Sequence record: PZ445427.1
From: a phage
Strand: one strand, 5' to 3'
Length of the DNA: 64,000 nt
The notes beneath the pieces were generated by a model. That model was not told the DNA's origin. It saw only the letters and a program-made list of their open reading frames with translations, and made no database searches. A program made the position numbers and the translations under genes. Position 1 is the stretch's first letter; each line of letters starts with the position of its first letter. Below, one piece after another: positions 858-49,207 of this stretch.

Positions 858-886
858 AATTATACATAAGTTTTAGCTCGAAAGCA
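858..886 (-). promoter_or_regulatory. sigma70 promoter (minus strand) TTGCTT-17-TATAAT
   Basis: plus-strand attata 858..863 and aagcaa 881..886 give minus-strand -10/-35 with 17-bp spacer; followed by ATAAATTTGAGAGGAG box. Confidence 0.6.
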
Positions 887-889
887 AAT

Positions 890-920
890 AAAATAAAAGC
901 CAGGTCGACTAGCAACCTGG
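890..920 (-). terminator. rho-independent terminator downstream of nrdD
   Basis: Stem gccaggt/acctggc (898..904/914..920) followed on minus strand by TTTTATTT. Confidence 0.6.
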
Positions 921-928
921 CTGATTCA

Positions 929-2803
929 TTATTTAGCGCGAATGTCCTGATGTTTCACTCGACCCATAACCTCATGTTGTTTGCCTGGGTTAAATGGACG
1001 AGCACCTGGATTTCCAAGATATCCGCAAACTCGACGAGTTACCTCAAGAGTCTCAGGATCATGATTGCCACAAATTGGGCATTTGAAACCATCCTCAGAA
1101 GCTATAGTTTCACCCAAGAACCCACATTCCCCACAAGAGTCTACTGGAGTATTAATACCGAAGTAATGAACTTTACTTGCAGCATAGTTAATAACCCATT
1201 CCAGTGCATCAGGGAATCGTTTCATATCCGGTAATTCCACATAGGAAATGCACCCACCAGAAGCAATAGGAGTAAAGTTAGACTCATAATCAAACTTCAC
1301 ATTTGGAGCAACCTTACGTTCTACATCAAGGTGATGGGAATTAGTGTAATATCCTTTAGCCAGAATATCTTCATGCTCTGGGAAATACTCACGGTCTAGG
1401 CGACAGAAGCGATCACATAGAGATTCAGATGGTGTAGCATACAGACTATACCCTAATTGAGTCTCTTCCTTCTTCTGATCAGCACGATCACGCATGTATT
1501 GTAGCACACGTTGAACGAACTTGATACAAGACTCAGACATTGTATCTACATCTTTACCAAACATGAGTTGCAACATTTCGTGGCAGCCAATATATCCTAG
1601 GGATACAGAAGCACGCTTGTAGAAATGATCAAATACATATTCATCTGGCCCCAGACGTAATCCAAAGGCTCCTGACATATAGAGGATGGGCGCAGCTTTA
1701 GCTTGAATGTATTTTAAGCGATCAACCCTCCACTCCAATCCTTTTAACGCGGTATCCACACGCAGCTCAAGCAGATCGAAGAATAGATCAATATTTCCTT
1801 CCGCTTCGATAGCAATTCGAGGAAGGTTCACAGAAACAACACCTAAGTTATTACGGCCAGAAGTTTCACCATCTTCCGCAGCAGCTAGGAATGAACGACA
1901 GCCCATAGAGACTTTGTAGTCACCAGTAACTTCTACAACCTTATCATAACTGATATAGTCAGGATACATACGTTCAGCAGTACATTTCATAGCTAACTTC
2001 TTGATATCATAGTTAACATCACCAGGTTTCATGTTAACACCATCACGAAGTACAAATACCAGTTTAGGGAAGATAGCTGTACGTTTATTAATACCCAAAC
2101 CATCCATACGCACTTCTAAGATTGCTTTCTGTACAAGACGTGCTTCCCAAGAAGTTCCTAGACCAAAACCAAAGGTAATAAATGGACTCTGACCATTAGA
2201 GTTGAACATCGTATTGATCTCATACTCTAGACCCTGACAGGCATCGTAAACTTCCTTCTCAGTCATTTCCGTAGCCATTACAGATGCTTTAGCTTCATCC
2301 TTAGTCCAACGTTTTGCAAACGCATGATTCTTATCATAAGACTTACGAACATAAGGAGCCAATACTTCATCTAATCGGTCTACAGAAGTACCACCATATT
2401 GATGTGAACTAACCTGAGTGATAATCTGAGCTGTGATAGCAGCCGCAGTAGTAATAGAGTTTGGCGTACTGATTTCAGCATTACCAACCTTCATACCGTT
2501 TTTCAACATATCTTCCAAAGCAACCAGGCAACAGTTAGTCATACCTAACGCAGCGTAATCAGCATCATGGAAGTGAATATCACCAATCATGTGAGCATTT
2601 CGAATCTGGATTGGCATTTCTTCCAGAATCAGATATTTACTCAATTCCCCTGCAAGCATGTCCCTTTGTGTAGGGAAACGTTCTGAGGGCTTATTGGCAT
2701 TATTAAACAGCAGCTCTTCATCTGCTGAACCTTCGATAATTTCTTTGCAGTTTCGAATCAAGGACTGCATTCCTTTATACTTTAGTTCTTCATTGCGATT
2801 CAT
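929..2803 (-). CDS. nrdD: anaerobic ribonucleoside-triphosphate reductase (class III)
   Basis: 624 aa; C-terminal glycyl-radical motif RVCGYLG and CxxC...CxxC zinc site; AAGGAGG RBS. Confidence 0.9.
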   Translation of the reverse strand: MNRNEELKYKGMQSLIRNCKEIIEGSADEELLFNNANKPSERFPTQRDMLAGELSKYLILEEMPIQIRNAHMIGDIHFHDADYAALGMTNCCLVALEDMLKNGMKVGNAEISTPNSITTAAAITAQIITQVSSHQYGGTSVDRLDEVLAPYVRKSYDKNHAFAKRWTKDEAKASVMATEMTEKEVYDACQGLEYEINTMFNSNGQSPFITFGFGLGTSWEARLVQKAILEVRMDGLGINKRTAIFPKLVFVLRDGVNMKPGDVNYDIKKLAMKCTAERMYPDYISYDKVVEVTGDYKVSMGCRSFLAAAEDGETSGRNNLGVVSVNLPRIAIEAEGNIDLFFDLLELRVDTALKGLEWRVDRLKYIQAKAAPILYMSGAFGLRLGPDEYVFDHFYKRASVSLGYIGCHEMLQLMFGKDVDTMSESCIKFVQRVLQYMRDRADQKKEETQLGYSLYATPSESLCDRFCRLDREYFPEHEDILAKGYYTNSHHLDVERKVAPNVKFDYESNFTPIASGGCISYVELPDMKRFPDALEWVINYAASKVHYFGINTPVDSCGECGFLGETIASEDGFKCPICGNHDPETLEVTRRVCGYLGNPGARPFNPGKQHEVMGRVKHQDIRAK

Positions 2804-2832
2804 TATACCCTCCTTCTCTAACTAAGACTACT

Positions 2833-2861
2833 ATTATAACTCATTCGAAGGCGGATGTCAA
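2833..2861 (-). promoter_or_regulatory. consensus sigma70 promoter for nrdD (TTGACA-17-TATAAT)
   Basis: plus-strand attata 2833..2838 and tgtcaa 2856..2861 = perfect -10 and -35 on minus strand, 17-bp spacer, about 25 nt upstream of nrdD start. Confidence 0.65.
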
Positions 2862-2912
2862 CAATATTTTACTATAACATTCTGTAAATTGATCTGAGTC
2901 AAAAAATTTTAT

Positions 2913-2941: not shown

Positions 2942-3053
2942 CACGCGCCCGTGTACGCGATATAAAATGATTATCTAGTACCACACATCTCCCAATAAAA
3001 GCAAGCAAATTTTTTATTTAAAAGCAATATCATAGGCTTATTTAAAATTGTAG

Positions 3054-3082
3054 TTGCTTTCTCCCGTATATATTGGTATAAT
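3054..3082 (+). promoter_or_regulatory. sigma70 promoter TTGCTT-17-TATAAT (phoH)
   Basis: ttgctt 3054..3059, tataat 3077..3082. Confidence 0.55.
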
Positions 3083-3155
3083 ATATTTGTAAGTTGATAA
3101 ACAAGATCTTTTTGTTGATCCTCTGTTAGCGAAGTACACTATAGGAGTGTTATTT

Positions 3156-4152: not shown

Positions 4153-4273
4153 TATAGAAGGCCTGGGTATGAAAATACTCGGGCCTTTTCTATCAGAAAA
4201 TTTTATTTGCCAAATGACTGAGAATAAAGTAAACTATTTCCTAAATCCTGATAACTACAAAAAGGAAAGCCAA

Positions 4274-6613: not shown

Positions 6614-6640
6614 GGAGATCTTCGGGTCTCCTTTTTCTTT
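6614..6640 (+). terminator. rho-independent terminator after nrdA
   Basis: ggagatc-ttcg-ggtctcc hairpin then T-run. Confidence 0.6.
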
Positions 6641-6650
6641 GAAATTTTAC

Positions 6651-6679
6651 TTGCTAATCGCTACCAGATTTGCTATAAT
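6651..6679 (+). promoter_or_regulatory. sigma70 promoter TTGCTA-17-TATAAT (nrdB)
   Basis: ttgcta 6651..6656, tataat 6674..6679. Confidence 0.6.
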
Positions 6680-6710
6680 ATTCCTGAAATAGTGAGAAAG
6701 AGGAAAATCA

Positions 6711-9242: not shown

Positions 9243-9267
9243 ATAGCCCTTCGGGGCTATTATATTT
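9243..9267 (+). terminator. rho-independent terminator
   Basis: atagccc-ttcg-gggctat hairpin followed by TATATTT. Confidence 0.55.
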
Positions 9268-9276
9268 AAATTTCAT

Positions 9277-9305
9277 TTGCTTACTGAGTGAAATTCAAAT
9301 ATAAT
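9277..9305 (+). promoter_or_regulatory. T5-type early promoter
   Basis: ttgctt 9277..9282, 17 bp, tataat 9300..9305. Confidence 0.6.
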
Positions 9306-9329
9306 ATATTTTATAAATTGGAGACACTT

Positions 9330-9584
9330 ATGGGACTCTTTAAAAAGAAAGTTTATTTAACACAAAGTCAAGAACGCAGGTTCTTAGCTCTGTCTCAGTA
9401 TTACCATTTACCTTTCGATCATTTCATAGAACGGGCGTTAGAACAATTCCTAGAAAAGGAATTAAGGGCAATTAGACCTGAACCGCCAAGAGCACCAAAT
9501 GATGCACAGAGAGGTCATCCACGTATCCCACCTATGCCGCCAGTTCCACCAGCGACTAGGGTCATTATAGAAGGTGAAAAATAA
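9330..9584 (+). CDS. ribbon-helix-helix-like small DNA-binding protein with Pro-rich tail
   Basis: ATG 9330 after GGAGA; N-terminal KKVYLTQSQERRFLALSQYY resembles RHH beta-strand/helix; C-terminal PRIPPMPPVPP. Confidence 0.45.
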   Translation: MGLFKKKVYLTQSQERRFLALSQYYHLPFDHFIERALEQFLEKELRAIRPEPPRAPNDAQRGHPRIPPMPPVPPATRVIIEGEK

Positions 9585-9853: not shown

Positions 9854-10329
9854 TGTCGGTTTTCCACATATATACAGATGGTGCATGTAAGGGCAATCCT
9901 GGTTTAGGTGCGTGGGGATTCGTTGTCTATAATGATAATGATGATCGTATTGGCTCTAAATCTGGCTTCAGCCATAAAACTACTAATAACGAAATGGAAC
10001 TTACTGCAATTGTTGAAGTTCTTCGTTGGTCTACTAAGAAAGATAATCGTCCAGTAATTATCTACACTGATTCTGCTTACTGCAAAAATGGTATGGAAAG
10101 CTGGATGTGGTCTTGGCAGAAGAAAGGATGGAAGAAAGGAGATGGTGAAACTCCTCTTAATCTAGAACTCTGGCAAGAAGCGTTTAAACTAACTCAACAG
10201 TATATTAATTTCCATGATACTAACCCAACCTTTGTTAAGGTTAAAGGTCACTCAGGTATTCGTGGTAATGAAGAAGTTGATGCTCTATGCAATACTGTAA
10301 TTACTGAGCAAGAACTTGCTGAGATGTAA
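9853..10329 (+). CDS. rnhA: ribonuclease H
   Basis: HIYTDGACKGNPG and ELTA motifs of RNase HI; ATG 9853 overlaps upstream stop. Confidence 0.8.
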   Translation: MSVFHIYTDGACKGNPGLGAWGFVVYNDNDDRIGSKSGFSHKTTNNEMELTAIVEVLRWSTKKDNRPVIIYTDSAYCKNGMESWMWSWQKKGWKKGDGETPLNLELWQEAFKLTQQYINFHDTNPTFVKVKGHSGIRGNEEVDALCNTVITEQELAEM

Positions 10330-10349
10330 TAAATAATTTAAAAATTCAC

Positions 10350-10378
10350 TTGCTTAAAGCCCTCGAATTTAGTATAAT
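10350..10378 (+). promoter_or_regulatory. T5-type early promoter
   Basis: ttgctt 10350..10355, 17 bp, tataat 10373..10378. Confidence 0.6.
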
Positions 10379-10405
10379 ATTCGTATTGAAAGTGAGGAGG
10401 GCTTT

Positions 10406-10684
10406 ATGCGAATTTACAACTCAAATTCATTAGGATTTAAACCTTTGAGAAAACGCGCACAATCTCCGCGTCAGATCAGAAAGGCAAATATTGGTGAGCC
10501 AGAAACTAGGCTTCCACCACCTCCGGAGCAGCGTCTAGTTTATCTAGATGAAGAATTAGCCGAAAGGGAACGCAAAGCTCAAGAAGAAATTGAGCGCAAG
10601 AAACTGTGTACTGCTCCTGCATATAACAAGGGTGGTTATCAGTACGTTTCCAGTGAGGAACAAGCTAAGATGATCGGCAGATAA
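10406..10684 (+). CDS. hypothetical protein (92 aa)
   Basis: GAGGAGGG RBS. Confidence 0.55.
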   Translation: MRIYNSNSLGFKPLRKRAQSPRQIRKANIGEPETRLPPPPEQRLVYLDEELAERERKAQEEIERKKLCTAPAYNKGGYQYVSSEEQAKMIGR

Positions 10685-10700
10685 TTTTTAAAAAATTCAT

Positions 10701-10729
10701 TTGCTAAACGCTTCAAAATTTCGTATAAT
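10701..10729 (+). promoter_or_regulatory. T5-type early promoter
   Basis: ttgcta 10701..10706, 17 bp, tataat 10724..10729. Confidence 0.6.
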
Positions 10730-10767
10730 ATATCTCATAAATTGATCAACAAAAAGGAAAACAAATA

Positions 10768-11283: not shown

Positions 11284-11344
11284 TGATTGATGGGGCGAAA
11301 GCCCCATATACTAACTCTTTCTCTGACTAATTAAGGATATTTTT

Positions 11345-11560
11345 ATGTTCTCTAAGAAACCACGTTCCGTTACTGAAATCGTTGCTTCCTTTACCACTAT
11401 TACTGATGAACTTCAAGCTCGTATTGAAGCTGACCAGAAAACTGCTGCTGATATTCAGAAACAGCAGGAAGAACTCGCTCTGAAACTGGCTGAAACCAAT
11501 AAGAGTGAAAAATCTGCTCAAACTATTAAGGAAAATATCCTTAAACTGCTGGGCAAGTAA
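11345..11560 (+). CDS. hypothetical coiled-coil protein (71 aa)
   Basis: AAGGA RBS. Confidence 0.5.
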   Translation: MFSKKPRSVTEIVASFTTITDELQARIEADQKTAADIQKQQEELALKLAETNKSEKSAQTIKENILKLLGK

Positions 11561-11601
11561 TTTAAATCAGGGGGCGAAAGCCCCTCTTATTTGGAGAAAC
11601 T

Positions 11602-11844: not shown

Positions 11845-12546
11845 ATGAAATTCAAGCCCTTTGGTATGCTGGACATTGAATCTCTAGGTACTCCAGGAAA
11901 TTGCGGTACTACTCATATTGCAATGCCTTCTTTCGCTTTTGTAGCGATGCACGGAATTGATAAAGATCCTGATCTGGTATTCGTTACTCTAGACGTTCAA
12001 GATCAGCTTAATGCGGGTGCTAAGGTAACTGCCTCTACTATTGCATTCTGGATGGATCAAGCTAAAAACAGTCCATCTGCGCTCCATATTATGGAGGCTC
12101 TAAATGGTCGTAATCCTAAACTGATTGCCTTCCGTGATGGTAAGCATCACTGCACTAATGACGTAGGCTCTAATTATGCTGCCTTCTCTATGGCTCAGAA
12201 CATTATGGAATTGTCTCTAGGAGATAATGCTCTGTATTACGGCAATGGCCCAGAGTTTGATATGACAATCTACTCTGCAAATACGTTCCATGCCGGAACC
12301 CATGAAGAAATAGTTCCGTGGAAATTCTGGAACTTAGGTAACGTTCGATCTTTCCGTAATCAGTGGATGCAAGCTGGTTATAGCTATAAAGATCTAGAAG
12401 CCGAAGGTGCTAGCTGGGCAAAAGCTAAAATGGAAAAGATGGACACCATTCGTTATGGAATCTATCCTGTGAAGCATGATCCAGCATTCGATGCTTTAGT
12501 TGAAAGTTATTGTGTAGCCGTCATGATCGAAAAAATCAAAATTTGA
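11845..12546 (+). CDS. DEDDh-type 3'-5' exonuclease-like protein
   Basis: Exo I motif LDIES near N-terminus and Exo III motif HDPAFDA near C-terminus. Confidence 0.5.
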   Translation: MKFKPFGMLDIESLGTPGNCGTTHIAMPSFAFVAMHGIDKDPDLVFVTLDVQDQLNAGAKVTASTIAFWMDQAKNSPSALHIMEALNGRNPKLIAFRDGKHHCTNDVGSNYAAFSMAQNIMELSLGDNALYYGNGPEFDMTIYSANTFHAGTHEEIVPWKFWNLGNVRSFRNQWMQAGYSYKDLEAEGASWAKAKMEKMDTIRYGIYPVKHDPAFDALVESYCVAVMIEKIKI

Positions 12547-12547
12547 T

Positions 12548-12576
12548 TTGCTTTCAGCTCCAAAATTCTGTATAAT
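12548..12576 (+). promoter_or_regulatory. T5-type early promoter
   Basis: ttgctt 12548..12553, 17 bp, tataat 12571..12576. Confidence 0.6.
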
Positions 12577-12616
12577 ATATTCATAAATTTGAGAGAACAA
12601 CAAAAGGAAAACAATT

Positions 12617-13501: not shown

Positions 13502-13855
13502 AGACTAGTAAATCGGTAGACGAAAGCCCAAGCATCTTACCTCGCAGCAGCGGTTGAAATACGAGGTTAAATAAGACCGCTGACCATACTATAAAGTATA
13601 ATCTATTGGAGATTATGTTTATTACATCAGACATTTAATCTGACACGTAAAAACAAAAGGTCGTTGGTAGTACCAACACAACTTCAAAGATCAACGCTCA
13701 AGTATGAAAGCTGAAAAGTTAAAAGCACTCAAACTTCTAACCTTCTAAAGCTAAAAGATGCAAAGTATTCGTTGATGATTCAAACCCTAGATCAAAGGTA
13801 CATGGCTCATAAGATATGGCCTGTGGCGCCTCTAGGCTGTTTATCGGTTTACTAG
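13502..13855 (+). other. ORF-free structured region closed by long-range stem (candidate ncRNA or processed 3' UTR)
   Basis: agactagtaaatcgg at 13502.. pairs with ccggtttactagtct at about 13840..13855; no ORF of 60 aa or more and no tRNA motif inside. Confidence 0.3.
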
Positions 13856-13876
13856 TCTCTCAATTTAAAAATGTAT

Positions 13877-13905
13877 TTGCTAATTAGTTTAGTTTTCTAT
13901 ATAAT
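13877..13905 (+). promoter_or_regulatory. T5-type early promoter
   Basis: ttgcta 13877..13882, 17 bp, tataat 13900..13905. Confidence 0.6.
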
Positions 13906-13935
13906 ATATTTTTAAATTGATGAGACGAGGCTATT

Positions 13936-14258: not shown

Positions 14259-14708
14259 ATGAAGGCAGCTTTGCTTTTAATAGCTGCCCTAACCTATAGC
14301 TTCAATAGTCATGCGACCTACGACTCAAAGCAGATTGATTGCATTGCAAAAAATATCTACTTCGAAGCACGAGGTGAGGGCACTAAAGGAATGATCGCAG
14401 TTGCACAGGTTACTAAAAACCGTGTTAACTCTGGTACTTTTCCTGATTCTTACTGTAAAGTAGTATATCAGTCTAACCAGTTCTCTTGGGTGGCCAAGAG
14501 ACCAAAAGTTGATAAAACCGATGAGGCTTGGCAAGTTGCTAAGAATTTAGCTAGAGTGATATACTACGTTGATTTACCACAAGATCCAACACATGGAGCG
14601 TTATACTTCCATAGTGGTAAAGATAAACCGTACTGGACAAAGAAGTTTAAGAAAACAACGAAGATTCAAGGCCATACGTTCTACAAGCCTGTGGTTAAGA
14701 AAACTTAA
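14259..14708 (+). CDS. secreted SleB-like cell-wall hydrolase (Hydrolase_2 family)
   Basis: Start ATG 14259 after GGAG gives signal peptide MKAALLLIAALTYSFNSHA; motifs NIYFEARGE, AVAQVTKNRV, YQSNQFSWV. Confidence 0.6.
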   Translation: MKAALLLIAALTYSFNSHATYDSKQIDCIAKNIYFEARGEGTKGMIAVAQVTKNRVNSGTFPDSYCKVVYQSNQFSWVAKRPKVDKTDEAWQVAKNLARVIYYVDLPQDPTHGALYFHSGKDKPYWTKKFKKTTKIQGHTFYKPVVKKT

Positions 14709-14716
14709 AAATTCGA

Positions 14717-14745
14717 TTGCTTAAAGCCTTAAATTTCTGTATAAT
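14717..14745 (+). promoter_or_regulatory. T5-type early promoter
   Basis: ttgctt 14717..14722, 17 bp, tataat 14740..14745. Confidence 0.6.
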
Positions 14746-14776
14746 ACTTTCATAAATTAATGAGAGGAAGCGAAAT

Positions 14777-14947: not shown

Positions 14948-15390
14948 TGGAAGAGAATATTCTAAATGTTTTGCGTAGGGCTTTGCAGGAATCTAAGGTT
15001 GATGGTTCTGATAAAGAAGTAGCTAAAAGCTACCAGACCATAATCGGAGATCTTCAGCGTGTTGATAAAGACTTCATTACTTCTGAACAGTTTGTATCTT
15101 ATCTAAAAGCTCAACTGAAAAGCATTAATCAGACGAAAGCTAAACTTCACGGTCAAGACCTTGATAATTATAGCTTGCAGTCTGCTCAGTATGAGTATAT
15201 ACTGAACAAATGGCTACAACAGTATCTGCCGCCTCAGTTATCTGATTCTGAGATTCGCAAATACTTTGCAGAATTAGTTAAGTTGAACCCTGGGATTACA
15301 AAAGGTATGCTGATGAAAGCGATTAAGGAAGAGTTTCCTGGTCGTTACGACGGTGGCATTGCTGCTCAGGTTGCTGGCGAATTTAATTAA
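14947..15390 (+). CDS. YqeY/GatB-domain-like protein
   Basis: 147 aa; LNVLRRALQESK ... ELVKLNPGITKGMLMKAIKEEFPGRYDG resembles YqeY family. Confidence 0.45.
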   Translation: MEENILNVLRRALQESKVDGSDKEVAKSYQTIIGDLQRVDKDFITSEQFVSYLKAQLKSINQTKAKLHGQDLDNYSLQSAQYEYILNKWLQQYLPPQLSDSEIRKYFAELVKLNPGITKGMLMKAIKEEFPGRYDGGIAAQVAGEFN

Positions 15391-15398
15391 AAATTGAT

Positions 15399-15427
15399 TT
15401 GCTAAACGCCTCAAAATTCTGTATAAT
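15399..15427 (+). promoter_or_regulatory. T5-type early promoter (very close to classical P_N25 sequence)
   Basis: ttgcta 15399..15404, 17 bp, tataat 15422..15427, then AGATTCATAAATT. Confidence 0.65.
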
Positions 15428-16286
15428 AGATTCATAAATTAGAGAACAGCGAGCCGATTACGCTGAGTGAGTTTAGTGATTCCTACTAGGATAGCTATTC
15501 CACTGAATAGAGTCGGTGAGTTGGAGACTAGTAAGTACTCTGAGAGAGGCTACGAGCTAACGCTTATTGCTATTGATAGGGAACTGAAAATCTGCGGAAA
15601 ACTCGGGAGCTGTCCCGAAATCTCGTAAACTCTTCTCTAGTTTATGTTAGTGGGGTGTCGAACTGACTTATGTGATAACACTGCCGTCCTAGTATAAACG
15701 GTAATATCAAACCGTAACTGGTGGAAGATGCAGGTTCGAATCCTGCGGTCGGAAAGAATCAGATAACTCGGGCTTATACCGGATAAGCATTCGCTGCTGG
15801 AGTACATACTATGACGGTTCAGGAGGTACGCCACCTGATCAGTATTAGGTTAGAATCGAAACAGCTAAACCACGAGGAAACCTGACGGCCTCAACCAAAC
15901 TCGGAACTCGGGATCACTGCCTAGTGTGTGCCCCGTTTAACCTGAGACTAGGCATCCAGCTTCGCATCGAAAATCGGAGGTGCGATTCTAACAGACCGCG
16001 TGAATATGAGAGTGGGAAACGCTGACATGAGAGATGTCACTAATGGTGCCCAATAGTACAGGTAATTCGCGATAATTCCTGTTGAGCGGCAGCAGTAGGC
16101 TGGGAGTCATGACCTAAGCCTAACCGAGTTCTTCACATACGGAGAACATAACCACAAAGTCACCCTGACTTAAACTGGAAGATATTGTCTGACGGAAGGG
16201 CTGCAGAGCTTAATCTGAGGGGGCTGACCCTACCTACCGTCGGGTATCTTTAAGAGCTTTTATAAGAGTTCTTAAAAATACCTAAA

Positions 16287-19380: not shown

Positions 19381-19496
19381 GGGGTCTTTAAAAATTGCCC
19401 CCGGATTTTTAGTGGGGTAACAATTTCTGGACTTCACCACTCACCTGCTACCCTTAAGTGCCCTGCGATTTTCCACTAAAAAGTTTAAAAATTCGA

Positions 19497-19525
19497 TTGC
19501 TTGAATGCTAAATTCTCTGTATAAT
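19497..19525 (+). promoter_or_regulatory. T5-type early promoter
   Basis: ttgctt 19497..19502, 17 bp, tataat 19520..19525. Confidence 0.6.
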
Positions 19526-19555
19526 ATATTTATAAATTTGAGAGAGGAATCAAAT

Positions 19556-20611
19556 ATGATTAAGACTGGTCTAGTAATTGGTAAGTTCGCACCATTAACG
19601 CGTGGTCATATTAACCTAATAAACACAGCAGCAACTATGTGTGAACGAGTTATTGTTGTAGTTAGTCATGATAATCGTTGGCTGGATAAGCAGAACACAC
19701 GTGATCAGGAAGTATTACAGTTAAAGAATCGACTTCGTTGGTTAGAACAAACTTACGCGGATATTGAGCACATTTCGGTAGAGTACATTATTGAAGATGA
19801 TATTCCTGAATATCCGAATGGTTGGCCGGAATATGCTAGAATCCTTAATGAAAATTACGGACATTTGCCTGAGATCACCATTTTCTCTAGCGAACTAGAC
19901 TATGATGCAGAATATAAGAAATATCTGCCGAAGTTTGGTCATTATATTGTAGATTCTGATCGGACTCGTGTTCCAATCTCAGCTACAATGATTCGTAATG
20001 ATCTTATGAAGTATTGGGAGTTTCTTCCTAGCGTAGTTCGTAAAGATTACGTGCGTAAGGTTGTAATCATTGGGACTGAAAGCTCGGGAAAGACTACTTT
20101 AACAAAATACCTTGCGAAGCTATACAACACTTCGTGGGTAGAAGAATATGGCCGAACGTATTGTGAAGTTGATCTAGTTGGTAACGAAAATCTACTTACC
20201 AGTGAAGATTATAGTAAAATTGCGTTCAGACACAAAGAGCTAGAGTTTGAAGCAGAACGTACTGCAAATAAGATCATGTTTGTGGATACAAATGCTTTTA
20301 TTACTGAGTTCTACCACAGACTTTATGAACATCGTAAGAATCCTGTGGTTACAGCAATTGCAAAAGAAGAACATTACGATTTAGTAATTGTTCTAGCGCC
20401 TACTGTTAAGTGGGTAGATGATGGTTTACGTATTAACTCCGATCGTTCAATTACTTCTGAACTGTTCGAGCAGATGAAGAAAGAATTTCCAAATCAGTTC
20501 CCTGAAGGGCGTACTGTTTACATCGACTCCCCGGACTACAAAGTTCGTATGGACGAAGCAGTAAACGCAGTAGACTGGCTGATTCATCACTTTAACGTTG
20601 GAGAGTTTTAA
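19556..20611 (+). CDS. nadR: NadR-like bifunctional NMN adenylyltransferase / ribosylnicotinamide kinase
   Basis: GKFAPLTRGH nucleotidyltransferase motif and IIGTESSGKTTL P-loop; start ATG 19556 (track start 19505 lies in promoter). Confidence 0.7.
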   Translation: MIKTGLVIGKFAPLTRGHINLINTAATMCERVIVVVSHDNRWLDKQNTRDQEVLQLKNRLRWLEQTYADIEHISVEYIIEDDIPEYPNGWPEYARILNENYGHLPEITIFSSELDYDAEYKKYLPKFGHYIVDSDRTRVPISATMIRNDLMKYWEFLPSVVRKDYVRKVVIIGTESSGKTTLTKYLAKLYNTSWVEEYGRTYCEVDLVGNENLLTSEDYSKIAFRHKELEFEAERTANKIMFVDTNAFITEFYHRLYEHRKNPVVTAIAKEEHYDLVIVLAPTVKWVDDGLRINSDRSITSELFEQMKKEFPNQFPEGRTVYIDSPDYKVRMDEAVNAVDWLIHHFNVGEF

Positions 20612-20612
20612 T

Positions 20613-21290
20613 ATGACTAACTATCTTGTAAATGACTTTAAAAACTGGAAACCTTTGGAATATCTGTGGCTGTTTATAGCAGTCGCCTTTATTAGTTTAG
20701 CAAACTATAATGGTACAGCTCTAGATTGGGCTACTGCAATAACCAATGTGGTTTGTGTTATTCTGGTTGCAAAAGGACGTGTTTCCAACTATATTTGGGG
20801 CTTAGTGGGTGTTCTTACATATGGTATTACAGCTTTAAACGCAGATCTTTATGGTAACGCTGCACTAAACCTGCTATACTACGTTCCTATGCAGTTTTAT
20901 GGAATGTACTTATGGCATAAAAATAAGCCAAGTAATCTGCCAGATGTTCCAACTAAGGTTCTGACTAAAGCCCAAGCTCTGCTGACTCTAGGGATTCTAG
21001 CAGTAGCCACGTTAGGGTATGGTAGTTTCTTAGCTACTACGGCTGATCCATTCCCAATGTTGGATGCATTTACTGCGGTAGGTAGTGTGATCGCTATGTG
21101 GCTTATGGTTAAGCAGTATGCCGAGCAGTGGCTGATCTGGATTGCTATTAACATTGGTACTGTGTACATTTGGCTTGTAACTGCTCAATCTACAGGTGCA
21201 TCTTATGCAATCCTAGCAATGTGGCTAGTATTCTTAGGTAACTCTATTATGGGAGCCTATAAAGGATACTTTGTACGCGTTAACAAATAA
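20613..21290 (+). CDS. pnuC: PnuC-like nicotinamide riboside transporter
   Basis: Polytopic membrane protein immediately after nadR; start ATG 20613 after GGAGAG. Confidence 0.6.
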   Translation: MTNYLVNDFKNWKPLEYLWLFIAVAFISLANYNGTALDWATAITNVVCVILVAKGRVSNYIWGLVGVLTYGITALNADLYGNAALNLLYYVPMQFYGMYLWHKNKPSNLPDVPTKVLTKAQALLTLGILAVATLGYGSFLATTADPFPMLDAFTAVGSVIAMWLMVKQYAEQWLIWIAINIGTVYIWLVTAQSTGASYAILAMWLVFLGNSIMGAYKGYFVRVNK

Positions 21291-21296
21291 AGTAGT

Positions 21297-21325
21297 TATA
21301 GCCCTCGCTTAGAGGGCTATTATAC
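21297..21325 (+). terminator. hairpin, probable terminator
   Basis: tatagccctc-gctta-gagggctat stem-loop, weak U-tract. Confidence 0.4.
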
Positions 21326-21337
21326 AGAAATTTTCAC

Positions 21338-21366
21338 TTGCTTTATATAGAAAATTTCTGTATAAT
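21338..21366 (+). promoter_or_regulatory. T5-type early promoter
   Basis: ttgctt 21338..21343, 17 bp, tataat 21361..21366. Confidence 0.6.
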
Positions 21367-21396
21367 ATATTTATAAATTTGAGAGAGGAATCAAAC

Positions 21397-21693
21397 ATGA
21401 AACGCATTGTACTTGCATTGACTCTAGTATCTACTTCTGTATTTGCTGTTCCACAACAGGAACTTTGTCAAGTTCAGGTTTGTAATAAGTTAGAACGATT
21501 TACTTTGGATATTTGGTCACACATTAAAGATAATATGGGTGAACAGTGTTTTGATATTGTTCTGCCAAAAGAGCAGGCTGTTCCTGGTGCTGTTCTTAGC
21601 TCAGAGTCACGTTGGTGGCAGGGTTCTTCTATCAACCCAACTAAGAAGTCAGTGACACGTATCAAACAGGTATATCAGTGCAATGTTCAGTAA
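21397..21693 (+). CDS. secreted hypothetical protein (98 aa)
   Basis: ATG 21397 gives signal peptide MKRIVLALTLVSTSVFA; track start 21379 is TTG inside promoter box. Confidence 0.55.
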   Translation: MKRIVLALTLVSTSVFAVPQQELCQVQVCNKLERFTLDIWSHIKDNMGEQCFDIVLPKEQAVPGAVLSSESRWWQGSSINPTKKSVTRIKQVYQCNVQ

Positions 21694-21701
21694 AATTTCA
21701 C

Positions 21702-21730
21702 TTGCTTAATGCCGAAATTTTCTGTATAAT
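21702..21730 (+). promoter_or_regulatory. T5-type early promoter driving tRNA cluster
   Basis: ttgctt 21702..21707, 17 bp, tataat 21725..21730. Confidence 0.6.
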
Positions 21731-21744
21731 ATATTCATAAATTT

Positions 21745-21838
21745 GGAAGATTAACCCTAAAGGTAAGGGAGCTGTTTGCTAAACAGCCAGTAACTGTGGA
21801 GACACGGTGTGCCAGTTCGAATCTGGCATCTTCCTCCA
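21745..21838 (+). tRNA. tRNA-Ser(GCT)
   Basis: Acceptor ggaagat/atcttcc, anticodon loop ttgctaa, long variable arm, T-loop ttcgaat, CCA. Confidence 0.75.
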
Positions 21839-27484: not shown

Positions 27485-27727
27485 ATTTATATAAATTGAT
27501 GGGGAGAAATCCTCATCAAAGTTCACTAAGGTATTAGCTCGACCTAGGACTGGCTGCCAAAAAGCACGATCCCTACGACTTGGGAGAAGTTCTAGATTAG
27601 TCCACTAGATTCAGTGGCAACTGAATAGTGTATCGGGTTTGTGAAGAGCGGTTATCCTCTACTGGCTAATGTCTGAGGGTAATACGCACACCGAGCTAAT
27701 AGCCTTAGTAAACTAGAAGGAATATCT

Positions 27728-30612: not shown

Positions 30613-30687
30613 GCTCCTAAAGCATTGCTGGCGATGCAGTTGCCTTGTAAGCATCTGAACCGGGTTCGATTCCTGGTGGGAGCACCA
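30613..30687 (+). tRNA. tRNA-Thr(TGT)
   Basis: Acceptor gctccta/tgggagc, D stem gcat/atgc, anticodon loop cttgtaa, T-arm ccggg-ttcgatt-cctgg, CCA. Confidence 0.7.
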
Positions 30688-30702
30688 AATTTAAAAATTC
30701 AT

Positions 30703-30731
30703 TTGCCTTCTCTCTTATTTCTTGTTATAAT
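30703..30731 (+). promoter_or_regulatory. T5-type early promoter
   Basis: ttgcct 30703..30708, 17 bp, tataat 30726..30731. Confidence 0.55.
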
Positions 30732-30761
30732 ATTTATATAAATTAATGAGAGGGAAACCAA

Positions 30762-32995: not shown

Positions 32996-33493
32996 ATGGA
33001 AACCTGGAAAGACATAACAGGTTTTGAGGGTAAATACCAGATATCTAATAAGGGGAATGTCTCTAGTTATTTATCTGGTAAAATTCTCAAACCCCAAGTA
33101 AATAGACAAGGGTATCTTGTCATCAACCTATATTATGAAGTAGGTAAAGCTAGAAAATTTAGGATACACAGACTTGTAGCTGAGCACTTTATACCTAATC
33201 CAGATAATAAACCCTTCGTTAATCATCTGGATGGTGATAAGTCAAATAATGACGAGGATAACCTAGAATGGAGCACCTCGGAAGAGAATAATAGACATGC
33301 CCGTGAAAATGGTTTAGCTAATTGGGCGAAAGGGGAACAGCATGGTAGGTGTAAACTATCTGATGCAGATATCTTTTGGATAAGAAGTCATTATCAGCCA
33401 AGAAACCGAGAATTTGGTCAAGCTGCTTTAGCTAGGATGTTCGGTGTAAGTCAACCTCACATATCGTATATAATTAACGGGCATAAAAGGTAA
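32996..33493 (+). CDS. HNH homing endonuclease (NUMOD4 + HNH)
   Basis: GFEGKYQISNKGNV NUMOD4 motif and HRLVAEHFIPNP...NHLDGDKSNN...NLEW HNH motif; C-terminal HTH-like tail. Confidence 0.85.
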   Translation: METWKDITGFEGKYQISNKGNVSSYLSGKILKPQVNRQGYLVINLYYEVGKARKFRIHRLVAEHFIPNPDNKPFVNHLDGDKSNNDEDNLEWSTSEENNRHARENGLANWAKGEQHGRCKLSDADIFWIRSHYQPRNREFGQAALARMFGVSQPHISYIINGHKR

Positions 33494-33509
33494 AAATGAA
33501 ATAATTCAT

Positions 33510-33538
33510 TTGCTAAAGAACCTCTTTATTGATATAAT
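33510..33538 (+). promoter_or_regulatory. T5-type early promoter
   Basis: ttgcta 33510..33515, 17 bp, tataat 33533..33538. Confidence 0.6.
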
Positions 33539-33569
33539 ATTTATATAAATTGATAGAGAGGGCTTTGAA

Positions 33570-35585: not shown

Positions 35586-35620
35586 AGCCCAGCCTGCAAT
35601 TTTGCGACTGGGCTATTTTT
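35586..35620 (+). terminator. rho-independent terminator
   Basis: agcccag ... ctgggct hairpin then TTTTT. Confidence 0.6.
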
Positions 35621-35635
35621 GTAATAAAATTTCAG

Positions 35636-35664
35636 TTGCTCAGATGCCACAAGTATTGTATAAT
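35636..35664 (+). promoter_or_regulatory. T5-type early promoter
   Basis: ttgctc 35636..35641, 17 bp, tataat 35659..35664. Confidence 0.55.
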
Positions 35665-35695
35665 ATGTTTATAGATTGAGGCAAAAGGATAATTT

Positions 35696-39746: not shown

Positions 39747-40163
39747 ATGTTTGCAGAACTATTCACCATGATATTACTAGGAATATGGAAAATAAGCCTA
39801 GTAGTTTTCATCTTAATGATAATTCTCACTGTTGTCGCACTAGTTACCCAAAATGATACATTAAAGAAAGTCGTTCATGGGCTAGAGTATATAATTATGG
39901 GCACATTCGGCGTTTGCAAATGCAACTGCCAGAGGAATACGAAATATTGTTGGCTTTGGATGGAGTTAGAGAACTGCATCACAGTAGCCCTGGCTGTCTC
40001 ATTCGGTATGATTCTTATGGCCCTTACTCTAGCATTGATACCACTGATGTTAGCTGGGGGAGTCACGGCTTATTTCACCCTTTTCTCCCCTATACTTATG
40101 TATTCAATATATCCAATAACTATGTACTTAGTTAGGAAGAGATTCCCACATCAAGCACACTAA
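39747..40163 (+). CDS. polytopic membrane protein (138 aa)
   Basis: AGGAGAAAG RBS; four hydrophobic segments. Confidence 0.55.
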   Translation: MFAELFTMILLGIWKISLVVFILMIILTVVALVTQNDTLKKVVHGLEYIIMGTFGVCKCNCQRNTKYCWLWMELENCITVALAVSFGMILMALTLALIPLMLAGGVTAYFTLFSPILMYSIYPITMYLVRKRFPHQAH

Positions 40164-40175
40164 TATAAAAAAGTA

Positions 40176-40204
40176 GTTGACTTTCCGCTGAAATTTTTAT
40201 ATAA
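40176..40204 (+). promoter_or_regulatory. T5-type early promoter
   Basis: ttgact 40176..40181, 17 bp, tataat 40199..40204. Confidence 0.6.
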
Positions 40205-40238
40205 TATTTGTATAAATTGAATCAGAGGAGTTTCACAA

Positions 40239-40940: not shown

Positions 40941-40970
40941 ACCCAGATCTTAGCTGATCTGGGTTTTTTA
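40941..40970 (+). terminator. rho-independent terminator
   Basis: acccagatc ... gatctgggt hairpin then TTTTTTATT. Confidence 0.65.
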
Positions 40971-40974
40971 TTAC

Positions 40975-41003
40975 TTGCTTTCTGCTAAAAATTTTGATAT
41001 AAT
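40975..41003 (+). promoter_or_regulatory. T5-type early promoter
   Basis: ttgctt 40975..40980, 17 bp, tataat 40998..41003. Confidence 0.6.
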
Positions 41004-41034
41004 ATATGTATAAATTGATGAGAGGAGTATCACA

Positions 41035-43442: not shown

Positions 43443-43537
43443 TTTTGATGGCATGGCTCGTGAGATATTTATAGCAATAGGTATAGTAGTTCTTATCTCT
43501 TTCTTTACGGGCCTAGGCTTAGGCCTTTTATTTTAAA
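43436..43537 (+). CDS. small hydrophobic peptide (33 aa)
   Basis: ATG overlapping upstream stop; single TM-like segment; below track cutoff. Confidence 0.25.
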
Positions 43538-43544
43538 ACTTCAT

Positions 43545-43573
43545 TTGCTAAAATGCTTAGTTTTCTGTATAAT
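43545..43573 (+). promoter_or_regulatory. T5-type early promoter
   Basis: ttgcta 43545..43550, 17 bp, tataat 43568..43573. Confidence 0.6.
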
Positions 43574-43603
43574 TACTTTATAAATTGATGAGAAGGAATC
43601 AAA

Positions 43604-44035
43604 ATGCAAAAGATTGATAAAGCACTCTTAATCGCAACAGCAGATAAGTTTGAGCAAGTTAAAGCTACTTTTAAGGCAGTCTTTCAGTCCTATGTTCAAG
43701 ACAAATCGAACCCGATTTCTGAGCGTTTGATGATGTGGGAATGTTTTGCTTGCAATGCTCTGCTAATTTCCGATTATAAGGGAGAAGTATCTGAGGAATT
43801 GCATGAGATCTTTATTAATGAGGATACTCCACGCTATCAGTTAGTGAACTTCCAAGATCTAGCTGAGCAAGTTATTCCTGATGATCTTTGGGACAAGTAT
43901 TACGGTGATCCTGAAGAAGATGGTATGGAACCTGAGAAGTGCATCGAACTGATCTGTAAGGATCACCCTGAAATTGCTGAGAAATTTGAGCTAGTATTTG
44001 CTTCTGAGTTCTCAGGTTTCGTTAACGATTGGTAA
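43604..44035 (+). CDS. hypothetical acidic protein (143 aa)
   Basis: AGAAGGAA RBS. Confidence 0.55.
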   Translation: MQKIDKALLIATADKFEQVKATFKAVFQSYVQDKSNPISERLMMWECFACNALLISDYKGEVSEELHEIFINEDTPRYQLVNFQDLAEQVIPDDLWDKYYGDPEEDGMEPEKCIELICKDHPEIAEKFELVFASEFSGFVNDW

Positions 44036-44051
44036 GTAAATAAAAAATTCA

Positions 44052-44080
44052 GTTGCTTTTAGCTTTAAAATTCTGTATAA
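44052..44080 (+). promoter_or_regulatory. T5-type early promoter
   Basis: ttgctt 44052..44057, 17 bp, tataat 44075..44080. Confidence 0.6.
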
Positions 44081-44113
44081 TAAGTTCATAAATTAATGAG
44101 AGAGGAAATTCTA

Positions 44114-46756: not shown

Positions 46757-47275
46757 ATGAGAGATAAAATAAACGAATTACTTTATGAGGAAGCACTACA
46801 ATTCCCCATAAATAGATTCACTAAATCAGATGGATCTATTAATAGAACTAAGCTCAAACAACTTCATCCAGACTTCCAGCAAGATGCACTTAATCTTATC
46901 TTTATTAGAAGAGCTGTAGAAGCACATGGTAAGTTCTTTGGATATGAAAGAGTTAAGTATAGAACAATGCAACAGCAGGTTGAGGTCTATTGTCCAGATC
47001 ATGATGGCTACTTCTTGCAAACTGCACGGTCTCACTTAGAAGGATACGGTTGCCGATTATGTGCGCATAAAGTTGTGACACGCTTAACAGAATATGGAGT
47101 GTACACCGTACCAGCACCTTTCCACAAATTTGTAGTTGACGGTGAGCACATAATTTGGTATAATAAAGATCAAAAGTTAAAACAGGAGTTAAAGAAAGAT
47201 GGAGTACGTAGTCTGGTCAAACCCCTTAGCTCTACTCTCCCACAAACTGTTCAAGACGACGTGGGGAAGGCATGA
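46757..47275 (+). CDS. hypothetical protein (172 aa)
   Basis: ATG 46757; 3' end overlaps next ORF by 77 nt in another frame. Confidence 0.45.
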   Translation: MRDKINELLYEEALQFPINRFTKSDGSINRTKLKQLHPDFQQDALNLIFIRRAVEAHGKFFGYERVKYRTMQQQVEVYCPDHDGYFLQTARSHLEGYGCRLCAHKVVTRLTEYGVYTVPAPFHKFVVDGEHIIWYNKDQKLKQELKKDGVRSLVKPLSSTLPQTVQDDVGKA

Positions 47276-47483
47276 AGTCTTTATAGATACAAATCCTTAC
47301 CCAAATAATCATCCATTAGTTCCTACATTATTTAAGGTAAAAATTGATGGTAAAGAATATTTACTAGATTCTTTTGGGCATGAGTTTGTAATAGAAGCCA
47401 TAGAAGATAATAGTATCTCTATGCGTGAAGTAATTAATAGAGCAGCCAACTTTGATAAGAGTTGGATGCTAATCTGGGGTTAA
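47199..47483 (+). CDS. hypothetical protein (94 aa), overlaps upstream ORF
   Basis: AAAGAAAG RBS-like before ATG 47199. Confidence 0.4.
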   Translation: MEYVVWSNPLALLSHKLFKTTWGRHEVFIDTNPYPNNHPLVPTLFKVKIDGKEYLLDSFGHEFVIEAIEDNSISMREVINRAANFDKSWMLIWG

Positions 47484-47484
47484 T

Positions 47485-47670
47485 ATGGAAACACTACTTC
47501 TTGTACTACTAGGTGGCTCACTCTTAACCATTCTAGGCTTGATAATTGTATGCAGTCGCCTCAATGTTAAGAATCTAGAATTAAATAGTGAGAATGAGAT
47601 TCTTAACCGAGAAATTAAACAACATAATATCGCAGCTCGTAAGCTGTTAGATAAACTGGAGAATAGATAA
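47485..47670 (+). CDS. small membrane protein (61 aa)
   Basis: N-terminal TM then coiled-coil. Confidence 0.5.
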   Translation: METLLLVLLGGSLLTILGLIIVCSRLNVKNLELNSENEILNREIKQHNIAARKLLDKLENR

Positions 47671-48281
47671 TGTTTACACAACAAACCATTAAAGTAGTTG
47701 CAGATCATGAACTCGACACATGGGATTACAGCTTTAAAGATCTGACTGCTACAGTACAGTTTAAATCTATGCAACTGTCGTTTTTGCACACTGATCTTCA
47801 AGGTTGCAAGGAATTTCAGGCTAAACTCATGAATGCTCGTGCTATCTTTGGCACAGCTCGCATCCCGGCAGATAATCTGATTAATGCACTAATCGATGCG
47901 GGGTATAAACTCATGAAGACTGAGGTGAACCGCCCTAGTACTCCAGTGACTATTCGGGATCCATGGCAGTCAGGGCCAATCGCAATGCTGAATAATTCTG
48001 ATAAAAGATTAATGTCGGATATGCACAATGTTCCTTGTGGTGGCGTGGTAAGCAATACACAATCATATAAGTTTGGGGAAGCATCTAGCGTAGACGAGTG
48101 GGATAAAGCTGGCGTTGCAATGATGGGCTTTGCAAAAGATCGCGGAGCACAAGAAGACTCCGGAGTTTCTAGGAACTCATATACTATTCGTTTGAGCAAT
48201 CCTAGCAAAGAAGGTGAGCTTGAAGAAATGTTAACGAAAGTATTCGAAGCTATTGATGCAGATAAAGCTAGAGGTCGTTAA
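47670..48281 (+). CDS. hypothetical protein (203 aa)
   Basis: TAATG coupling. Confidence 0.55.
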   Translation: MFTQQTIKVVADHELDTWDYSFKDLTATVQFKSMQLSFLHTDLQGCKEFQAKLMNARAIFGTARIPADNLINALIDAGYKLMKTEVNRPSTPVTIRDPWQSGPIAMLNNSDKRLMSDMHNVPCGGVVSNTQSYKFGEASSVDEWDKAGVAMMGFAKDRGAQEDSGVSRNSYTIRLSNPSKEGELEEMLTKVFEAIDADKARGR

Positions 48282-49171
48282 TGGGATTTTATAGTAATAG
48301 AAAGCCGAAAGGTGTAGTTGGTAAATTCGCGGTGGAAGAGAGACCTTTTCCACCGGTCGATGTAGAGAAACTACGTGAACTTCTCGAAATGTTAGAGGGC
48401 TGCCATGAACGTTGTTACTCTGAGCTTTCTTTAAACGAGAAACGTGTTGTTGAGATGTTCTGTATTCGGTCAGCTAGAACAGTTAGAGGTACTTCTCCAA
48501 AAGATGAAATAAAAGAATACAGAGTTCTAGTGATGCATGCTTGGGCACAACGTTTTGCAGTTCATTCACTTCAGGAATGGTTTAATCTTCCAGCATATAA
48601 AGACTTCCATGTTTATGAAGATGAAGTTATGAATTATAATGAGTTGTACGGTTTGTCATTTAAAAAGACAGGCTCACCAATGCATGATGCACTCAATTCA
48701 TTCCCTGATCATTATCTTCCAGTTCGTGAATACAGAGATCGTGAGGGAAATAAACCTTGCTTCACTATATGGAATAAGTCTAAGACAATATCTGATCTAG
48801 ACAATTATTGGTTCCGCACAAAAGAAGGATTCCTAGGAACAGAACCTTTACCTAAGGATCTCAAGCCTATCCTCCCACCTGTGAAACCTAAGCATGAAGT
48901 AACGATTGCTATTAATAGAATAATTCTAGGAGCAGATGATCTTACTAAACAAATCGCCGCAGTTATTGCAGTTCTGTTTGAAGGTACAAAATCTTCCCCA
49001 CGTTATGAAAAGCTAACTGATAACAAATTGCAGATACCTAACGAGTTGTACGAGAGTTCATGTAAGATCTATGATAACTTCAGTAAAGTAGATTACCCTG
49101 TGAGATCCATCAAAGAACTCATGGAGTATGCGGAGATGGGGATGAAAGGAAATCTCATGTTCGATGAATAA
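48281..49171 (+). CDS. hypothetical protein (296 aa)
   Basis: TAATG coupling; last gene before repeat region. Confidence 0.55.
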   Translation: MGFYSNRKPKGVVGKFAVEERPFPPVDVEKLRELLEMLEGCHERCYSELSLNEKRVVEMFCIRSARTVRGTSPKDEIKEYRVLVMHAWAQRFAVHSLQEWFNLPAYKDFHVYEDEVMNYNELYGLSFKKTGSPMHDALNSFPDHYLPVREYRDREGNKPCFTIWNKSKTISDLDNYWFRTKEGFLGTEPLPKDLKPILPPVKPKHEVTIAINRIILGADDLTKQIAAVIAVLFEGTKSSPRYEKLTDNKLQIPNELYESSCKIYDNFSKVDYPVRSIKELMEYAEMGMKGNLMFDE

Positions 49172-49178
49172 ACTCTAC

Positions 49179-49207
49179 TTGACGTTATGATTTCTGCATG
49201 TTATAAT
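49179..49207 (+). promoter_or_regulatory. strong sigma70 promoter TTGACG-17-TGtTATAAT pointing into ORF-free repeat region
   Basis: ttgacg 49179..49184, extended -10 tg at 49199..49200, tataat 49202..49207. Confidence 0.55.

Follow-up and report, generated by a model that had tools for sequence, protein, structure and literature searches.

The early promoters of bacteriophage T5 have been known as a class since the 1980s, and one of them, P-N25, is the 'T5 promoter' of expression vectors; it was reportedly described, together with P-H207 and P-D/E33, by Gentz and Bujard in 1985. The T5 genome record (AY543070; promoter annotation by Wang et al., 2005) carries 36 features labelled 'promoter', each 74-75 bp long, in the 10-75 kb region, among them P-N25, P-N26, P-K28a/b, P-H207, P-D/E33 and P10a to P16-17, and the record of phage BF23 carries equivalent 'early promoter' features of 81 bp. 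An ATATT discriminator is common to all identified T5 early promoters, and early kinetics in vivo have been recorded by primer extension for the promoter P15A (Klimuk et al., 2020; PMC7472727). In T4-like phages, promoter-early stem-loops (PeSLs) have been described (Arbiol et al., 2010, PMC2839356; Comeau et al., 2014, PMC4122927). Here, we analysed a stretch of 64,000 nucleotides of phage DNA (PZ445427.1; hereafter, the window), in which an initial annotation had proposed that one promoter cassette, here called the module, recurs about 28 times between positions 858 and 49207 and heads nearly every early transcription unit. Modules are designated below by the position of their -35 hexamer.

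Over 8 kb (13000-21000), the window shares 99.6% identity with Salmonella phage EH3, and this slice is matched by hundreds of T5-like phages (Demerecviridae, Epseptimavirus/Tequintavirus); on these matches, the window is assigned to a T5-like Salmonella phage of the genus Epseptimavirus. It is collinear with T5, its plus strand corresponding to the minus strand of AY543070. The correspondence starts at the divergent nrdD/phoH promoter region (window ~3 kb, T5 ~53.8 kb), the early genes and the tRNA cluster (29 tRNAs) run to window ~49 kb (T5 ~11 kb), and the pre-early terminal-repeat region, followed by the receptor-binding protein gene, lies beyond.

The strict pattern TTGCTW-N16-18-TATAAT was matched 22 times in the window, versus 0.24 matches expected from shuffled sequences (at most two in any one shuffle). 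A weight matrix of 79 nt, built from the matches with a 17-bp spacer and holding 59.6 bits of information, detected 25 sites with scores of 25 to 77 bits, far above the best score of -4.8 in 30 first-order Markov simulated sequences matched for dinucleotide frequency. The shuffled and simulated sequences rule out chance or AT-rich low complexity as the source of the modules. Together with a copy at 22938 whose spacer measures 18 bp, the window holds 26 full modules (Table 1): 24 on the plus strand, from 3054 to 44053, and two on the minus strand, at 887 and 61701, the last being the only one outside 858-49207. Four plainer sigma-70 promoters without the downstream box (2861 on the minus strand, 4207, 47136 and 49179) bring the total within 858-49207 to about 29, close to the number first proposed, and the matrix scan, which had been named as a check on that proposal, turned out in its favour.

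The consensus of the modules reads TTTAAAAATTCAT-TTGCTT-AAAGCCTTAAATTTCTG-TATAAT-ATATTT-ATAAATT(T/G)(A/G)AGAG. In outline, ~80 bp are occupied by an A-tract, TTGCTT or TTGCTA, 17 bp, TATAAT, an AT-rich discriminator and a downstream box, ATAAATTxGAGAGGA. TATAAT is present in all 26 copies and the spacer measures 17 bp in 25 of them; the A-tract (TTTAAAAATTCAT), directly 5' of TTGCTT in the consensus, is weaker where the T-tract of a terminator abuts the module (887 and 40975). The promoter features extracted from the T5 record have the same architecture, and about 23 of the 26 modules are positional orthologues of annotated T5 promoters, with 72 to 96% identity to T5 (the module at 19497, for instance, is the orthologue of P15A). 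The exceptions are 21338, which has no counterpart, and 61701, for which the comparison did not take in the corresponding T5 region. In P-N25, TATAATAGATTCAT is numbered -12 to +2 (Klimuk et al., 2020; PMC7472727), which places +1 at the A seven bases after TATAAT, that is, the first A of ATAAATT. At most loci, the identity to the orthologue in at least one of T5, BF23 and Kenya-K43 is 85 to 100%, whereas the best paralogue within the genome is 59 to 76% identical. Orthologues are thus far more alike than paralogues, and concerted evolution or gene conversion among the copies is rejected; the copies would owe their likeness to the constraint of a shared promoter design on each of them, and not to recent copying from one another.

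We consider it very probable that the modules correspond to the set of T5 early promoters, present here in a close relative and read, as early-class promoters, by the host sigma-70 RNA polymerase, and the claim that a single cassette heads nearly every early transcription unit stands in this form. The class is no discovery, having been recognised and annotated in the type phage before: the main finding is the rediscovery of one of the best-characterised bacterial promoter classes, useful for annotation because the modules mark early transcription units and point to the correct start codons. Several points weigh against this assignment. The early activity and timing ascribed to the modules in this phage derive from T5 orthology, and of 19 in-vitro promoters of T5, 11 gave primer-extension products in vivo (PMC7472727). 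The exact ATATT discriminator occurs in only 9 of the 26 copies; the remaining discriminators are AT-rich (e.g., ATTTAT, AGATTC and ACTTTC), and such variants are also found in named T5 promoters. Moreover, the role of the conserved +1 to +12 segment could be either in promoter escape or as an operator for a phage regulator. A literature search on T5 transcription start-site transcriptomics gave nothing directly relevant.

The ATG or TTG within the module had been suspected of creating false N-terminal extensions of open reading frames (ORFs), and this is what we found for the three examples put forward. The mechanical ORF list starts at 19505 (ATG), 21379 (TTG) and 44096 (ATG), whereas the ATGs preceded by a Shine-Dalgarno sequence are located at 19556, 21397 and 44114, and the latter are already in use in annotated genomes, as the lengths of the corresponding coding sequences in phage EH2 (1056, 297 and 252 nt) match them. 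At module 19497, an in-frame ATG (19505) and TTG (19538) produce a false extension of the nadR-like ORF, ATG 44096 adds six codons to the ORF starting at 44114, and the same artefact is present at module 9277, where in-frame TTG 9318 and GTG 9288 precede ATG 9330. These false starts sit inside the promoter spacer or the box. The artefact is limited to four of the ~21 protein-coding units, the others having an intervening stop, often the TGA or TAA of the box itself. The ATG or TTG of the box is a by-product of the TTGA/TGAG motif and misleads only callers that take the first start after a stop.

The modules had further been proposed to be dispersed repeats that could support recombination. In its broadest form, this reading makes them mobile regulatory cassettes of the PeSL type as well, with recombination between copies as a main driver of the gain, loss and swapping of early-region cassettes and with the reiteration as partly the result of their spread. 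Modules 19497 and 21338 share an exact block of 39 nt that begins at the end of the spacer and stops just short of the ATG. In phage NG_S8, a single hybrid module, whose left half comes from 19497 and whose right half comes from 21338, is followed by the 98-aa ORF, and ~1841 bp carrying nadR-pnuC and the terminator are absent. In phage vB_SenS-AKM_ECS, the left half of 21338, with its terminator hairpin, is fused within AAATTTCACTTGCTT to 21702, and the 98-aa ORF is absent. Both have the form of textbook repeat-mediated junctions and are reminiscent of the PeSL-mediated shuffling of T4-like phages (PMC2839356, PMC4122927). In T5, the gene located between P15a and P15b is another one (T5.076), and the P15a/21338/P15b stretch (19.5-21.8 kb) can be described as a small swap site at which related phages have different cargo between hybrid promoters. 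Across 19472-21758, three tandem modules are found with cargo that is independently present or absent (related loci L009, 2452-2568, and L001, 11294-11426). Two further features favour the PeSL-type reading: the cargo differs immediately after modules 6651, 26054 and 40975, and a GC-rich terminator hairpin lies within 30 nt upstream of about seven of the 26 copies (887, 6651, 9277, 21338, 35636, 40975 and 43545), as in PeSLs.

Other observations argue against this reading. The copies evolve as orthologues, and paralogous modules have short exact matches, the longest one having a median of 10 nt and reaching at least 25 nt in 3 of 300 pairs. A screen for hybrids by flank mapping covered 449 module instances at 129 related loci; among the 207 instances with both flanks mapped to the window, two were hybrids, both at the 19497/21338/21702 locus. 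Homology breakpoints relative to five comparator genomes (T5, BF23, EH2, Kenya-K43 and GE_vB_N5, the last being an unverified record) form 97 clusters between 3000 and 49300; 66 of them lie at a boundary, of whatever kind, of a gene or tRNA. Modules account for 5.3% of the bases and hold 14 of the breakpoints, an enrichment over the whole region (p = 6e-4) that disappears when the modules are compared with other non-coding DNA (14 of 42 non-coding breakpoints, versus 31% expected from the modules' share of the non-coding bases; p = 0.40) or with other junctions: a breakpoint is present in 14 of 24 module-bearing junctions, and the corresponding figures are 40 of 95 for the remaining junctions (p = 0.17) and 11 of 24 for module-free spacers at least 40 nt long (p = 0.56). 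With five comparators and 97 clusters, the power of these tests is limited, and a general recombination hotspot at the modules is rejected for now. The claim of recombination is supported by two clean hybrid junctions at one locus and does not extend to the modules in general, which have neither a breakpoint excess over other junctions or non-coding DNA nor concerted evolution. The broader PeSL-type reading is possible, but we hold it to be doubtful and prefer that of the modules as the T5 early promoter set.

Differences in gene content were also observed at the edges of modules. The T5 gene hegH, which encodes an HNH endonuclease (T5 49536-50060), lies exactly between the nrdB module and nrdB and is absent from the window (6681-6686). 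Three ORFs of the window are absent from most relatives, those of 165 aa (32996-33493), 117 aa (27110-27463) and 163 aa (23509-24000); as insertions, they abut the upstream edge of a module or tRNA, and they may be of the homing-endonuclease type.

If the modules are early promoters of the T5 type, their parts can be given putative functions. The A-tract, at about -46 to -38, would be a proximal UP-element subsite for the alpha subunits of the polymerase. It is followed by a -35 hexamer that departs from the consensus (TTGCTT or TTGCTA), a spacer of 17 bp conserved in its promoter-proximal part (AAATTCTG), a perfect -10 hexamer, TATAAT, and a six-base AT-rich discriminator, ATATTY. The conserved initial transcribed sequence would begin at the A of ATAAATT and, in protein-coding units, the transcribed box would lead into GAGAGGA, the Shine-Dalgarno sequence. 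In 17 of 24 units, the -10 hexamer and the ATG that follows a Shine-Dalgarno sequence are 27 to 34 nt apart, a uniformity that suggests a short and uniform 5' untranslated region of ~22 to 27 nt. Five modules (15399, 21702, 23310, 26054 and 27456) stand at the head of tRNA or non-coding RNA units; they retain ATAAATT and lack GAGAGGA, the conserved box ending at about +12. The downstream box would therefore split into an initial transcribed element, common to all units, and a ribosome-binding site restricted to protein-coding units. In the pre-early promoters (55316 and 55456), the A-tract and TTGACA are present and TATAAT-ATATT-ATAAATT is absent; their lack of the box and the copy at 61701 (minus strand), upstream of a lipoprotein gene, are consistent with an early-class signal. 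The receptor-blocking lipoprotein of T5 is said to be expressed early, according to Decker et al. in 1994.

The same box might alternatively act, with the discriminator, mainly as an operator or recognition element for a phage-encoded regulator of early transcription, either in early shut-off or in modulation by gpT5.026, and less as a determinant of promoter strength or escape. Its retention in tRNA units, which need no Shine-Dalgarno sequence, and its absence from pre-early promoters are points in favour of this proposal. Kammerer et al. reportedly observed in 1986 that the transcribed region of T5 N25 affects late initiation steps with the host enzyme alone, which speaks against an operator. 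The ATATT discriminator has been proposed to explain why gpT5.026 affects early and late promoters differently, but this protein binds RNA polymerase and not DNA (PMC7472727). We regard the operator proposal as unlikely and continue to read the modules as early promoters recognised by the host polymerase.

Two tetraloop hairpins lacking clear U-tracts had also been reported, with the suggestion that they may be processing rather than termination sites. Their core, GGGGCGAAAGCCCC, occurs exactly twice in the window, at 11292 and 11571, versus 0 expected. T5 and BF23 have a single hairpin, located between the homologues of T5.089 and T5.088, whose left flank matches that of hairpin 1 and whose right flank matches that of hairpin 2; furthermore, two BLAST alignments between the window and T5 overlap by exactly the 14-nt core. 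This pattern indicates that a 279-bp unit, composed of one hairpin and the 71-aa ORF, was gained or lost with endpoints in the hairpin. Judging from these flanks, the two hairpins are copies of one intercistronic stem-loop and now form the duplicated boundaries of a small indel. The 71-aa ORF is present in 372 phage records, with a conservation of 94 to 100% in nearly all of them; in some, it is mislabelled as 'tape-measure protein'. No family was found for this ORF, nor for the 98-aa ORF, in a Pfam search, and an Rfam scan returned tRNAs only, without a match for the hairpins or the downstream box.

Our best guess is that the hairpins would act as leaky terminators or 3'-end stabilisers. Their GC-rich stem of 5 to 7 bp, stable GNRA tetraloop and position just after a stop codon are those of intrinsic terminators and intercistronic stabilisers, and both are stable in a 56-nt context (-15.2 and -17.3 kcal/mol, z about -3). 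They differ from intrinsic terminators in that neither is annotated as such in T5 and in their U-tracts: hairpin 1 has none, whereas hairpin 2 has a weak tail (CUUAUUUGG, 5 T in 8) that was accepted by the terminator scan as weak. The lack of a U-tract after hairpin 1 and the location of both hairpins between cistrons of one unit, downstream of module 10701, would also suit RNase processing sites. Such sites are nevertheless improbable, given the U-rich tails after hairpin 2 and after the single T5 copy (UCAUAUUUUGG) and the core, which is invariant in every genome examined and hence yields no covariation signal.

A few observations concern the surroundings of the early region and the wider distribution of the modules. 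The full module at 61701, outside the early region, drives an 88-aa lipoprotein gene (module and gene together, 61377-61726, minus strand); the product is annotated elsewhere as a receptor-blocking or Cor-like protein, and the gene is divergent from the receptor-binding protein gene (61727-63508). The promoter at 49179-49207 points into ~1.3 kb of mostly non-coding DNA, in which about ten copies of TGTCGGATT(T/C)GCACA are found, along with a series of tandem GAATGAGAATGA-type units (49600-50400); its position makes this repeat-rich region a probable counterpart of the T5 injection-stop-signal region. A tRNA match that is marginal in Rfam (15683-15754, plus strand; 29.3 bits for a threshold of 29) and not called by ARAGORN lies in the non-coding transcript downstream of module 15399, which is the region equivalent to T5 RNAX. 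In a pattern scan of IMG/VR, nearly all contigs among the matches listed have the length of T5-like genomes (104 to 128 kb), and most have several copies; a few module matches on contigs of other sizes (187.8, 95.9, 76.6, 73.2 and 51.5 kb) may come from fragments or from other phage groups with the same promoter design.

Table 1. Promoter modules, plainer promoters, hairpins and candidate cassettes in the window (aa, amino acids).
Feature	Coordinates	Strand	Remarks
Module, -35 at 887	831..912	-	Terminator-like hairpin directly upstream; drives 93-aa ORF starting at 830; orthologue of T5 55708-55782
Sigma-70 promoter TTGACA-17-TATAAT of nrdD (2861)	2805..2886	-	No ATAAATT box; matches T5 promoter 53884-53958
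Module, -35 at 3054	3029..3110	+	First rightward unit (phoH side); 96% to T5 53638-53712
Weak promoter-like site TTGCCA-17-TAAACT (4207), upstream of nrdA	4182..4263	+	Matrix score -7.7; doubtful member
Module, -35 at 6651	6626..6707	+	Terminator hairpin upstream; drives nrdB; T5 counterpart 50061-50135; homology break 6681/6686
Module, -35 at 9277	9252..9333	+	Upstream hairpin; matched by eye to T5 46937-47011
Module, -35 at 10350	10325..10406	+	94% to T5 46337-46411
Module, -35 at 10701	10676..10757	+	Orthologue of T5 P-H207, 94%
Hairpin 1, UGGGGC-GAAA-GCCCCA	11290..11307	+	No U-tract; left boundary of 279-bp cassette
71-aa ORF between hairpins	11345..11560	+	Absent from T5, BF23 and apparently GE_vB_N5 (unverified record); in 372 phage records
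Hairpin 2, same 14-nt core, then CUUAUUUGG	11569..11586	+	Right boundary of 279-bp cassette
Module, -35 at 12548	12523..12604	+	96% to T5 44393-44467
Module, -35 at 13877	13852..13933	+	91% to T5 43067-43141
Module, -35 at 14717	14692..14773	+	Orthologue of T5 P-D/E33, 90%
Module, -35 at 15399	15374..15455	+	Orthologue of T5 P16-17; heads non-coding unit (RNAX-like RNA, then tRNA-Arg); no Shine-Dalgarno
Module, -35 at 19497	19472..19553	+	Orthologue of T5 P15a, 96%; drives nadR-like gene
nadR-pnuC-terminator cassette, ~1841 bp	19536..21376	+	Bounded by 39-nt repeat; ends nominal, crossover anywhere in repeat
Module, -35 at 21338	21313..21394	+	Upstream terminator hairpin; no T5 orthologue; 3' half identical to P15a
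98-aa ORF cassette between modules 21338 and 21702	21397..21693	+	Missing from vB_SenS-AKM_ECS
Module, -35 at 21702	21677..21758	+	T5 P15b by position only; heads tRNA-Ser/tRNA-Met; no Shine-Dalgarno
Module, -35 at 22938, 18-bp spacer	22913..22995	+	Orthologue of T5 P15c
Module, -35 TTGCTC at 23310	23285..23366	+	Orthologue of T5 P14a, 89%; heads tRNA-Tyr
Module, -35 at 24648	24623..24704	+	Orthologue of T5 P14b
Module, -35 at 26054	26029..26110	+	Orthologue of T5 P13a; directly heads tRNA-Pro; T5 has small ORF T5.066 inserted after it
Module, -35 at 27456	27431..27512	+	Orthologue of T5 P13b, 86%; heads non-coding/tRNA unit
Module, -35 TTGCCT at 30703	30678..30759	+	Orthologue of promoter labelled P11 in AY543070, 94%
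Module, -35 at 33510	33485..33566	+	Homology of 5/5 comparators resumes at 33497, after window-specific 165-aa ORF
Module, -35 TTGCTC at 35636	35611..35692	+	Upstream hairpin; 84% to T5 24443-24517
Module, -35 TTGACT at 40177	40152..40233	+	T5 19368-19442
Module, -35 at 40975	40950..41031	+	Strong upstream terminator hairpin; first gene after it differs from that of T5; T5 18550-18624
Module, -35 at 43545	43520..43601	+	Upstream hairpin; equivalent of T5 P-F30 site, 89%
Module, -35 at 44053	44028..44109	+	96% to T5 16245-16319
Sigma-70 promoter TTGACG-17-TATAAT (47136)	47111..47192	+	No ATAAATT box; matches T5 promoter 13212-13286
Sigma-70 promoter TTGACG-17-TATAAT (49179), ends 49207	49154..49235	+	No A-tract or box; points into non-coding repeat-rich region
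Module, -35 at 61701	61645..61726	-	Full module; drives 88-aa receptor-blocking lipoprotein gene, divergent from receptor-binding protein gene

Compared with the T5 early promoters, the modules have the same architecture base for base (A-tract, TTGCTT/A, 17 bp, TATAAT, ATATT and ATAAATT..GAGAGG) and the same genomic positions; the differences are the host (Salmonella) and genus (Epseptimavirus) of the window phage, the extra copy at 21338 and some of the cargo genes. The only mildly new element is the local evidence of promoter- and hairpin-bounded cassette exchange in a T5-like phage. Three repeat-bounded indels were identified in the window, two bounded by modules and one by hairpins, with nadR-pnuC, the 98-aa ORF and the 71-aa ORF as candidate portable cassettes. 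Our literature search found no description of cassette shuffling at promoter or hairpin joints for Demerecviridae, and searches on T5 st0 deletion endpoints and on promoter-linked mosaicism in T5-like phages gave nothing directly relevant. We tentatively suggest, as a proposal with less than an even chance of being right, that early-promoter modules and small intercistronic hairpins serve in Demerecviridae as portable recombination joints for small cassettes, as PeSLs do; if it generalises, the idea of regulatory-cassette shuffling developed for PeSLs would extend to a second large phage family. The modules differ from PeSLs in that a stem-loop accompanies only about a quarter of the copies in the window, there is no general excess of breakpoints and the phage family is a different one. 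What they share with the PeSLs of T4-like phages is the reiteration of a strong sigma-70 early promoter that has AT-rich DNA upstream, a 3' Shine-Dalgarno sequence and, in some copies, a terminator stem-loop, as well as indels bounded by two copies with a hybrid at the empty site, here in two cases at one locus.

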